Source: a virus. Taken from it: a stretch of DNA of 62,562 nt. The stretch is from UHGV virus genome UHGV-0106067. The stretch is one strand, 5' to 3'. Positions 45,723 through 45,748 of the stretch are shown piece by piece. The notes beneath the pieces are model-generated. The model was not told where the DNA came from and searched no databases. It saw nothing but the letters and a program-made list of their open reading frames with translations. Numbering within the stretch: position 1 is the first letter of the stretch; every line of letters starts with the position of its first letter. The position numbers were made by a program, and so were the translations under genes.

Positions 45723-45748
45723 GGGAGCATGTTGCTCCCCCTTTTTTT
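45723..45748 (+). terminator. strong hairpin + T-tract in plus orientation (antisense to tail genes)
   Basis: ggggagca-tgt-tgctcccc followed by ctttttttac. Confidence 0.4.

Follow-up and report, generated by a model that had tools for sequence, protein, structure and literature searches.

Which transcript is ended by a terminator that faces against every gene around it? This question is raised by a short hairpin in the virus genome UHGV-0106067, and we addressed it in the window, by which we mean the whole stretch of 62,562 nucleotides that was analysed. The window represents a 933W/Sp5-like short-tailed (Shiga-toxin-type) Escherichia coli prophage with its late genes on the minus strand, and the region is 99.7% identical to prophages of several E. 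coli genomes. The annotation of one such E. coli prophage, 99.7% identical, shows 15 genes over the ∼12 kb that surround the site, every one of them on the minus strand. Since there is no plus-strand gene nearby, the hairpin, whose T-run is on the plus strand, can only end a non-coding or antisense transcript. A preliminary description, made from the letters of the DNA alone, had proposed that it stops an antisense transcript coming from within the neighbouring tail gene, and had taken this as a hint of antisense regulation of tail expression.

Genomic context of the hairpin

On the late strand, the order is tail fibre, DUF4376, Eib-family, regulator-like gene, 42-aa open reading frame (ORF), hairpin, 541-aa gene and tail tip fibre (Table 1). 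Sp5 ORF70, to which the 541-aa gene is orthologous, is needed together with ORF71 for infectious Sp5 particles (PMC5155283). The preliminary description had placed the hairpin between a regulator gene and the tail gene, which is correct on the tail side, but the right-hand neighbour is the 42-aa membrane ORF and the regulator lies beyond it. This small ORF is convergent with the putative RNA, and its TAA lies 6 nt before the hairpin on the late strand. Its stop codon sits in the T-run, being provided by the complement of the T7 tract.

Table 1. Positions of the hairpin, the putative RNA and neighbouring features in the window
Feature	Position	Strand	Remarks
Terminator stem-loop	45722..45740	+	GGGGAGCA (45722-45729) / TGT (45730-45732) / TGCTCCCC (45733-45740); 8 perfect pairs
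T7 tract, U-tail of the putative RNA	45742..45748	+	One C (45741) separates it from the stem
Pyrimidine-rich stretch CGTCTTTCTTCTGGTC	45706..45721	+	Directly 5' of the hairpin
15-nt core CGATCGGTATCACTG	45631..45645	+	Common to all three types; position 8 is C, T or A
Putative sRNA, ∼113-129 nt	45620..45748	+	3' end as predicted from the terminator; 5' end probable
Best candidate sigma-70 promoter, TTCAGG-18 nt-TATGAT	45584..45613	+	Weak, score 7.4; start near 45620
Tail-morphogenesis gene, 541 aa	43940..45565	-	Orthologue of Sp5 ORF70/ECs1232; start codon 45563-45565
Tail tip fibre gene	42675-43943	-	Next after the 541-aa gene on the late strand
42-aa ORF	45747..45875	-	phrog_9340; basic N-terminus and one transmembrane helix
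Regulator-like cargo gene	45929..46429	-	phrog_6585; Pfam domain absent
Eib-family immunoglobulin-binding trimeric autotransporter	46488-47762	-	YadA anchor; matches EibD structures 2xqh and 2xzr
Further terminator-like hairpins	48256-48277, 48427-48444, 48556-48573	+	In the gap upstream of the Eib gene

The cargo slot upstream of the tail gene differs by phage, holding a regulator pseudogene in 933W/Sp5, cor in O104:H4 and, in the window, the Eib gene, which lies two genes up from the hairpin. In Sakai, the regulator-like gene has become a split pseudogene. An intact small membrane ORF occurs only with the window-type cargo, its last 14 codons being left in Sakai and its last 20 in O104:H4. 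Since truncation of the small ORF leaves the RNA element in place, the RNA is independent of that ORF. When the Sp5/933W locus (L005; Sakai NC_002695.2 1287272-1287575) is set against window 45747-46429, no more than fragments of the regulator and the small ORF remain there: ECs_1230 corresponds to the N-terminal part of the regulator, and an internal stretch is deleted. The Eib/regulator/small-ORF cargo may be the older state of the slot.

Several further features of the window were recorded beside this locus. The ∼800-nt non-coding gap upstream of the Eib gene (47763-48580) contains three plus-strand terminator-like hairpins (Table 1), an 11-nt tandem repeat ATGACCATTGA in three copies at 48092-48129 and a 16-mer present twice, at 48161 and 48338; no Rfam match falls in this gap, where additional antisense RNAs, or repeats that regulate eib, could be located. 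Another hairpin, at 40382-40405 close to the hok/lom end of the tail block, scores like a terminator whichever strand is read, has T-rich sequence to its left and right, and may be a two-way terminator. Rfam matches at the gathering threshold were found elsewhere in the window for four known RNA families of phages or plasmids, namely STnc100 (2809-3025, minus strand), the sok antitoxin RNA (6786-6960, minus strand), IsrK (16002-16077, plus strand) and, adjacent to the latter, the C4 antisense RNA (16102-16189, plus strand).

The hairpin has the motif of a one-way intrinsic terminator

The stem pairs perfectly over all eight positions, with six G-C and two A-T pairs. The site, the eight perfect pairs, the T7 tract and the plus orientation given in the preliminary description (45723-45748, with a GC stem) were thus borne out, but the stem starts one base earlier, at 45722, and two of its pairs are A-T. 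Folded alone, the hairpin reaches -15.1 kcal/mol (z = -3.66), and none of 200 shuffles folded as well. A terminator scan of the window also picked up the hairpin at 45722, among the best terminator-like sites of the region. In a strict scan of both strands of the 62.5 kb, we required at least 8 perfect pairs, at least 6 of them G-C, a loop of 3-8 and at least 6 T among the 9 positions that follow. Three hairpins were returned over both strands, this one being the only one on the plus strand, against a mean of 0.03 expected from 100 dinucleotide shuffles with both strands counted.

Read on the minus strand, the hairpin runs into the purine-rich GACCAGAAGAAAGACG and lacks a U-run, and the signal is therefore one-way. 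The hairpin with its T7 tract, a GC-rich stem-loop followed by a U-tract on the transcribed strand, is a conserved and canonical intrinsic (Rho-independent) terminator motif far beyond chance. The pyrimidine-rich stretch CGTCTTTCTTCTGGTC directly before it is likely to be an Hfq contact.

A nearly identical stem, GGGGAGCA-NNN-TGCTCCCC with a T-run, is an ordinary gene-end terminator in unrelated metagenomic phages (L012, L028, L021, L035 and ∼25 other IMG/VR loci), where the conserved ORF upstream ends ...AACCTTATGTAA. Since the stem is reused in unrelated phages, its sequence is generic.

Published RNA data at the orthologous Sakai site

Detection of RNAs bound to Hfq by CRAC in E. coli O157 Sakai had placed the interval ECs1231...ECs1232 of Sp5, the orthologous site, 27th among intergenic regions (Tree et al., 2014, Table S1B; PMC4104026). 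All reads of the five samples (81206, 6030, 70478, 146246 and 3140) stand in a single strand column, the opposite column showing 0 (PMC4104026); they were counted over the whole interval and not by position inside it. These read numbers are similar to those of the cyaR and micA intervals. We calibrated the strand columns with RNAs of known strand: spf, ssrA, cyaR, micA, chiX and the StxS interval fall in the 'anti-sense' column, and ryhB, sroC, oxyS and AsxR fall in the 'sense' column, the same one as the ECs1231...ECs1232 reads. AsxR lies on the minus strand between two plus-strand genes (Tree et al., 2014, Table S2; PMC4104026). The calibration therefore identifies the 'sense' column as the chromosomal minus strand and, since ECs_1232 lies on the plus strand in Sakai, the Hfq-bound reads run opposite to the late genes, on the strand where the hairpin has its T-run.

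In addition, the RNase E-CLASH tables of Waters et al. (PMC5286369) contain chimeras in which one half is AAATGCCTTGCATGACATTCTGATGATGACTAAAT, with descending coordinates and the label 'ECs1231 5'UTR'. With a 142-nt offset between the coordinates of the papers and the current Sakai assembly, AAATGCCTTGCATGACATTCTGATGATGACTAAAT occupies 1287669->1287635 of the Sakai minus strand. The hairpin lies at 1287599->1287581 there, so that the fragment precedes it by 35-70 nt, and the equivalent positions in the window are ∼45650-45684. These fragments therefore place the start of the RNA upstream of ∼45650. ECs1231 was a minus-strand ORF of the first annotation and has since been dropped by RefSeq; as a result, the RNA was filed as a 5'UTR and is absent from the EcOnc sRNA candidates. 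Specifically, the EcOnc lists of the groups that produced the data do not contain it, the locus being labelled the 5'UTR of ECs1231, and no EcOnc coordinates in Sp5 fall at the hairpin site when the 142-nt offset is allowed for.

The existence of a transcript on the terminator's strand at the orthologous site is supported by these data. All of the in vivo data, including the Hfq binding found by five-replicate, strand-specific Hfq-CRAC, were obtained on the type A orthologue; over the region it is 82% identical to type B of the window, from which it differs in the body.

Conservation and types of the element

The region is carried by 354 of the 5426 complete E. coli genomes, O104:H4 strains included, and occurs in 169 phage records, among them 933W and many Stx1/Stx2 phages. 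Three types were distinguished: type A in 933W/Sp5, type B in the window and in O104:H4 (the O104:H4 form being B2), and type C in loci L090-L092. Types A and B have in common the invariant stem and a near-invariant block that runs from the tail gene start to ∼45650; on the promoter side this block has one variable base between the two types in a four-sequence alignment. The body between block and hairpin, ∼75 nt, is only ∼60% alike between them. The loop varies between TGT and TAT in types A and B, and the T-run appears as T7, T6, TTTTTATT or TTTCTTT, always with at least 5 T in 8. Type C keeps the 15-nt core, as CGATCGGCATCACTG, together with a second short block, TCATTGATT, and the pyrimidine-rich stretch, whose equivalents are ATTTTCTTTCGGTTTG in type A and CTCCTTCCTTGTACC in type C. 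Its hairpin differs (CGGGGGT...ACCCCCG with a T-run, in the same orientation), and other cargo stands on the far side. After the hairpin on the late strand, all three types carry a purine-rich run and none a U-run. Core, body, U-rich stretch and terminator persist together, and the layout is therefore that of an sRNA gene.

No reading frame is conserved across the types, the plus-strand ORFs over the region differing by type (18 aa, read-through of the terminator and 41 aa). A small protein on the plus strand was accordingly rejected: the core reads I-G-I-T in frame in all types, and the rest of the ORFs are unalike. A conserved internal fold was not found among the three types either, as the minimum-energy structures of A, B and C differ.

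A tail-gene relative is encoded at 75 evaluable viral loci; the element is present in 37 (14 of type A, 19 of type B and 4 of type C) and absent from 38, and 18 of the latter have a tail gene at least 92% identical. All tail-gene relatives at 43-62% identity are without the element. Its absence beside tail genes that are at least 92% identical indicates that the element is accessory and does not belong to the signals by which the gene is expressed. Homology between phages breaks ∼30-40 nt beyond the terminator.

Searching one genome per species with a 19-nt core gave 45 matches, with titles almost all of unrelated organisms, and these were set aside as chance; the sole enterobacterial match, in Trabulsiella, is coding sequence. 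Independent mobility of the element was also rejected, because the partial matches (H58 and H59) reflect an IS1203 insertion and not a new context. In O157:H7 strain Z866 (L193 2245-3458), as in some O157 strains, an IS1203-family insertion lies between the sRNA element and the ORF70-like gene, and the annotated tail gene is shorter there (1602 vs 1626 nt). The insertion probably cripples the tail of that prophage.

A putative small RNA read against the late operon

We consider it probable that the hairpin is the terminator of an Hfq-binding prophage sRNA read against the late operon. The hairpin and its T7 tract would terminate a small non-coding RNA gene situated upstream of the ORF70-like tail gene and opposite the late operon, and the RNA, of ∼110-130 nt, would start near 45620-45635 and end in the U-tail. 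The best candidate promoter is intergenic and lies within the near-invariant block of types A and B, ∼55 nt upstream of the start codon of the tail gene. In a position-weight scan, 208 sites of the window scored at least as high, and a consensus scan returned no promoter at 9/12 or better. Alternatively, a TAAAAT at 45623-45628 would place the start of the RNA near 45635, close to the core.

At the other end, the window has the terminator, a T7 tract as U-tail (about six or more being expected of an Hfq-dependent sRNA) and the U-rich stretch before the stem, with equivalents in types A and C. [quoted passage not shown] The U/C-rich stretch, the GC hairpin and the U-tail would together make up its 3' Hfq-binding module. 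The sRNA would be made in the lysogen while the late genes are silent and would most likely act in trans as an Hfq-dependent base-pairing RNA, with the conserved 5' core, the type-specific body or both as its pairing region. Strong Hfq binding, taken with the layout of terminator, U-tail and U-rich stretch, fits a trans-acting sRNA better than a regulator of the tail gene. No relevant Rfam family was matched at the gathering threshold in the whole window or at E up to 10 in 45300-46100.

Alternative explanations

The same plus-strand RNA could instead pair in cis with the late mRNA upstream of the ORF70-like gene and lower its stability or translation, possibly silencing leaky late transcription in lysogens, for example. 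Phage antisense RNAs of this kind are lambda oop and P22 sar. The RNA is fully complementary to the late strand over 45620-45748, directly 5' of an essential tail gene, RNase E touches it in vivo, and a C4 antisense RNA match lies in the same window. With the best promoter, however, the RNA would fall ∼55 nt short of the start codon and leave the ribosome-binding site and the coding sequence uncovered, and the element does not co-occur with the tail gene, being absent both from the 18 loci with a nearly identical copy and from all of the more distant relatives. Moreover, heavy association with Hfq is typical of trans-acting sRNAs and unnecessary for antisense RNAs that form perfect duplexes. 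The part of the preliminary description that expected a transcript on the opposite strand is upheld at the Sakai orthologue by Hfq-CRAC and CLASH, but an origin inside the tail gene is not, the best promoter being intergenic. Its suggestion of antisense regulation of tail expression is not supported, in view of the region that the RNA would cover and of the tail genes that lack the element; we regard such control as possible but unlikely, and do not favour it.

The terminator might also work without a dedicated RNA, as an insulator that keeps stray antisense transcription, begun in or close to the tail genes, out of the convergent cargo (small ORF, regulator and Eib), the Hfq reads being a by-product. 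Its location exactly at the junction of the conserved tail block and the variable cargo slot, the weakness of the candidate promoter and the use of the same stem as an ordinary gene-end terminator in unrelated phages all agree with this, yet reads at the level of CyaR and MicA in five replicates argue for a stable and specific RNA, and the 15-nt upstream core, kept in three types and three cargo contexts, would be unexpected if the terminator alone mattered. We therefore hold a bare insulator to be quite improbable. A function on the late strand is less probable still: there the stem-loop after the small ORF would stabilise the 3' ends of cargo (moron) transcripts, mark a site for their processing or terminate them weakly, and the T-run on the other strand would be incidental. 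The closeness of the hairpin to the TAA of the 42-aa ORF would suit it, and cargo genes of late operons often have their own signals. Against it stand the lack of a late-strand U-run in the three types, in which the opposite T-run is always kept, the persistence of the hairpin where the small ORF is cut to 14-20 codons, and in vivo RNA data that lie on the other strand. Least probable of all, in our judgement, is a pair resembling a type I toxin-antitoxin system, in which the 42-aa ORF would encode a membrane toxin and the convergent RNA, overlapping the 3' UTR of that ORF, would serve as antitoxin, comparable to fst RNAI/RNAII or to the 3'-overlapping Bacillus systems. The small ORF has the basic N-terminus and single transmembrane helix for such a role and recurs in phages (phrog_9340), and it converges with the RNA gene at zero spacing with the hairpin in common. 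However, the two are not retained together, since the ORF is truncated in type A and in the B2 form of O104:H4 and absent in type C while the RNA element is kept, and in Sakai bound by Hfq; the RNA would also overlap the toxin mRNA only if that mRNA read through the hairpin.

Comparison with known RNAs

Short phage RNAs that lie opposite phage mRNA and end at an intrinsic terminator include lambda oop, P22 sar and the C4 RNA of P1/P7. These overlap the coding or ribosome-binding region of their targets and have defined targets in cis, whereas the hairpin RNA lies in an intergenic spacer; unlike them, it is strongly bound by Hfq and is absent from many phages with the same tail gene.

Closer in some respects are the anti-sRNAs AsxR and AgvB of EHEC prophages (RF02703 and RF02702; Tree et al., 2014), which are likewise encoded by prophages, bound by Hfq and read against the late operon, with an intrinsic terminator, a conserved 3' part and a variable pairing part, and which come from the same Hfq-CRAC experiment. 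They differ in length (51-60 nt vs ∼110-130 nt here) and location, since they sit downstream of PR'/stx and the hairpin RNA, for which there is at most a candidate target, in the tail region. Searches with cmscan for the AsxR/AgvB families, which share a conserved 3' region of ∼42 nt, gave no match at the gathering score in the window or at E up to 10 in 45300-46100. HnrS (EcOnc10-12) is a 66-nt multicopy prophage sRNA that represses hha (PMC13502914). It too associates with Hfq, has an intrinsic terminator and lies among the late genes of EHEC prophages, but it belongs to Sp9, Sp10 and Sp12, has another sequence and length, and has mapped ends and a proven target. PasB of EPEC E2348/69 is an Hfq-dependent sRNA (PMC8550237; bioRxiv 10.64898/2026.05.13.724894), also described inside an operon of phage structural genes, and it is found in EAEC and other non-LEE strains. 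No site in the whole window matches the PasB probe sequence, even when 3 mismatches are allowed, which makes PasB a different RNA. The named prophage sRNAs of EHEC and EPEC were thus rejected as identities of the hairpin RNA, AsxR, AgvB and HnrS by location and PasB by its probe.

Implications

The element proposed here is of an ordinary kind and its mechanism is not a new one, but this particular RNA has never had a study of its own, and published evidence of abundant Hfq binding at its locus has been overlooked. In those data its Hfq binding is roughly on a par with that of CyaR or MicA, yet the RNA is nameless, has no Rfam family and is unmarked in annotations. Its recognition corrects the simpler view of the hairpin as a mere stop signal for stray antisense transcription.

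MgrR, a core sRNA that controls the LPS-modifying enzyme EptB, was the only partner other than rRNA among the CLASH chimeras listed, in a single read. The duplex predicted with MgrR reaches -20.4 kcal/mol for type A, with 1% of shuffles as good, and -15.3 kcal/mol for type B, which is not significant; we treat this pairing as a lead only. A bolder reading, which we put forward as speculative and rather improbable, is that the element forms an allelic sRNA locus of Stx-type phages, with a conserved scaffold for Hfq, made up of the 5' core and the terminator, and type-specific bodies for different host RNAs, the 933W/Sp5 version acting as a sponge of MgrR. If true, different Stx phages would rewire host envelope regulation differently.

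The prophage sRNAs of pathogenic E. coli, including AsxR, AgvB, StxS, HnrS and the Pas RNAs, have each been found to adjust host virulence or physiology. The element described here is carried by medically important Stx phages, namely 933W, Sp5 and the O104:H4 prophage, and its recognition yields a defined candidate for study, of which types A, B and C form a natural allelic series.
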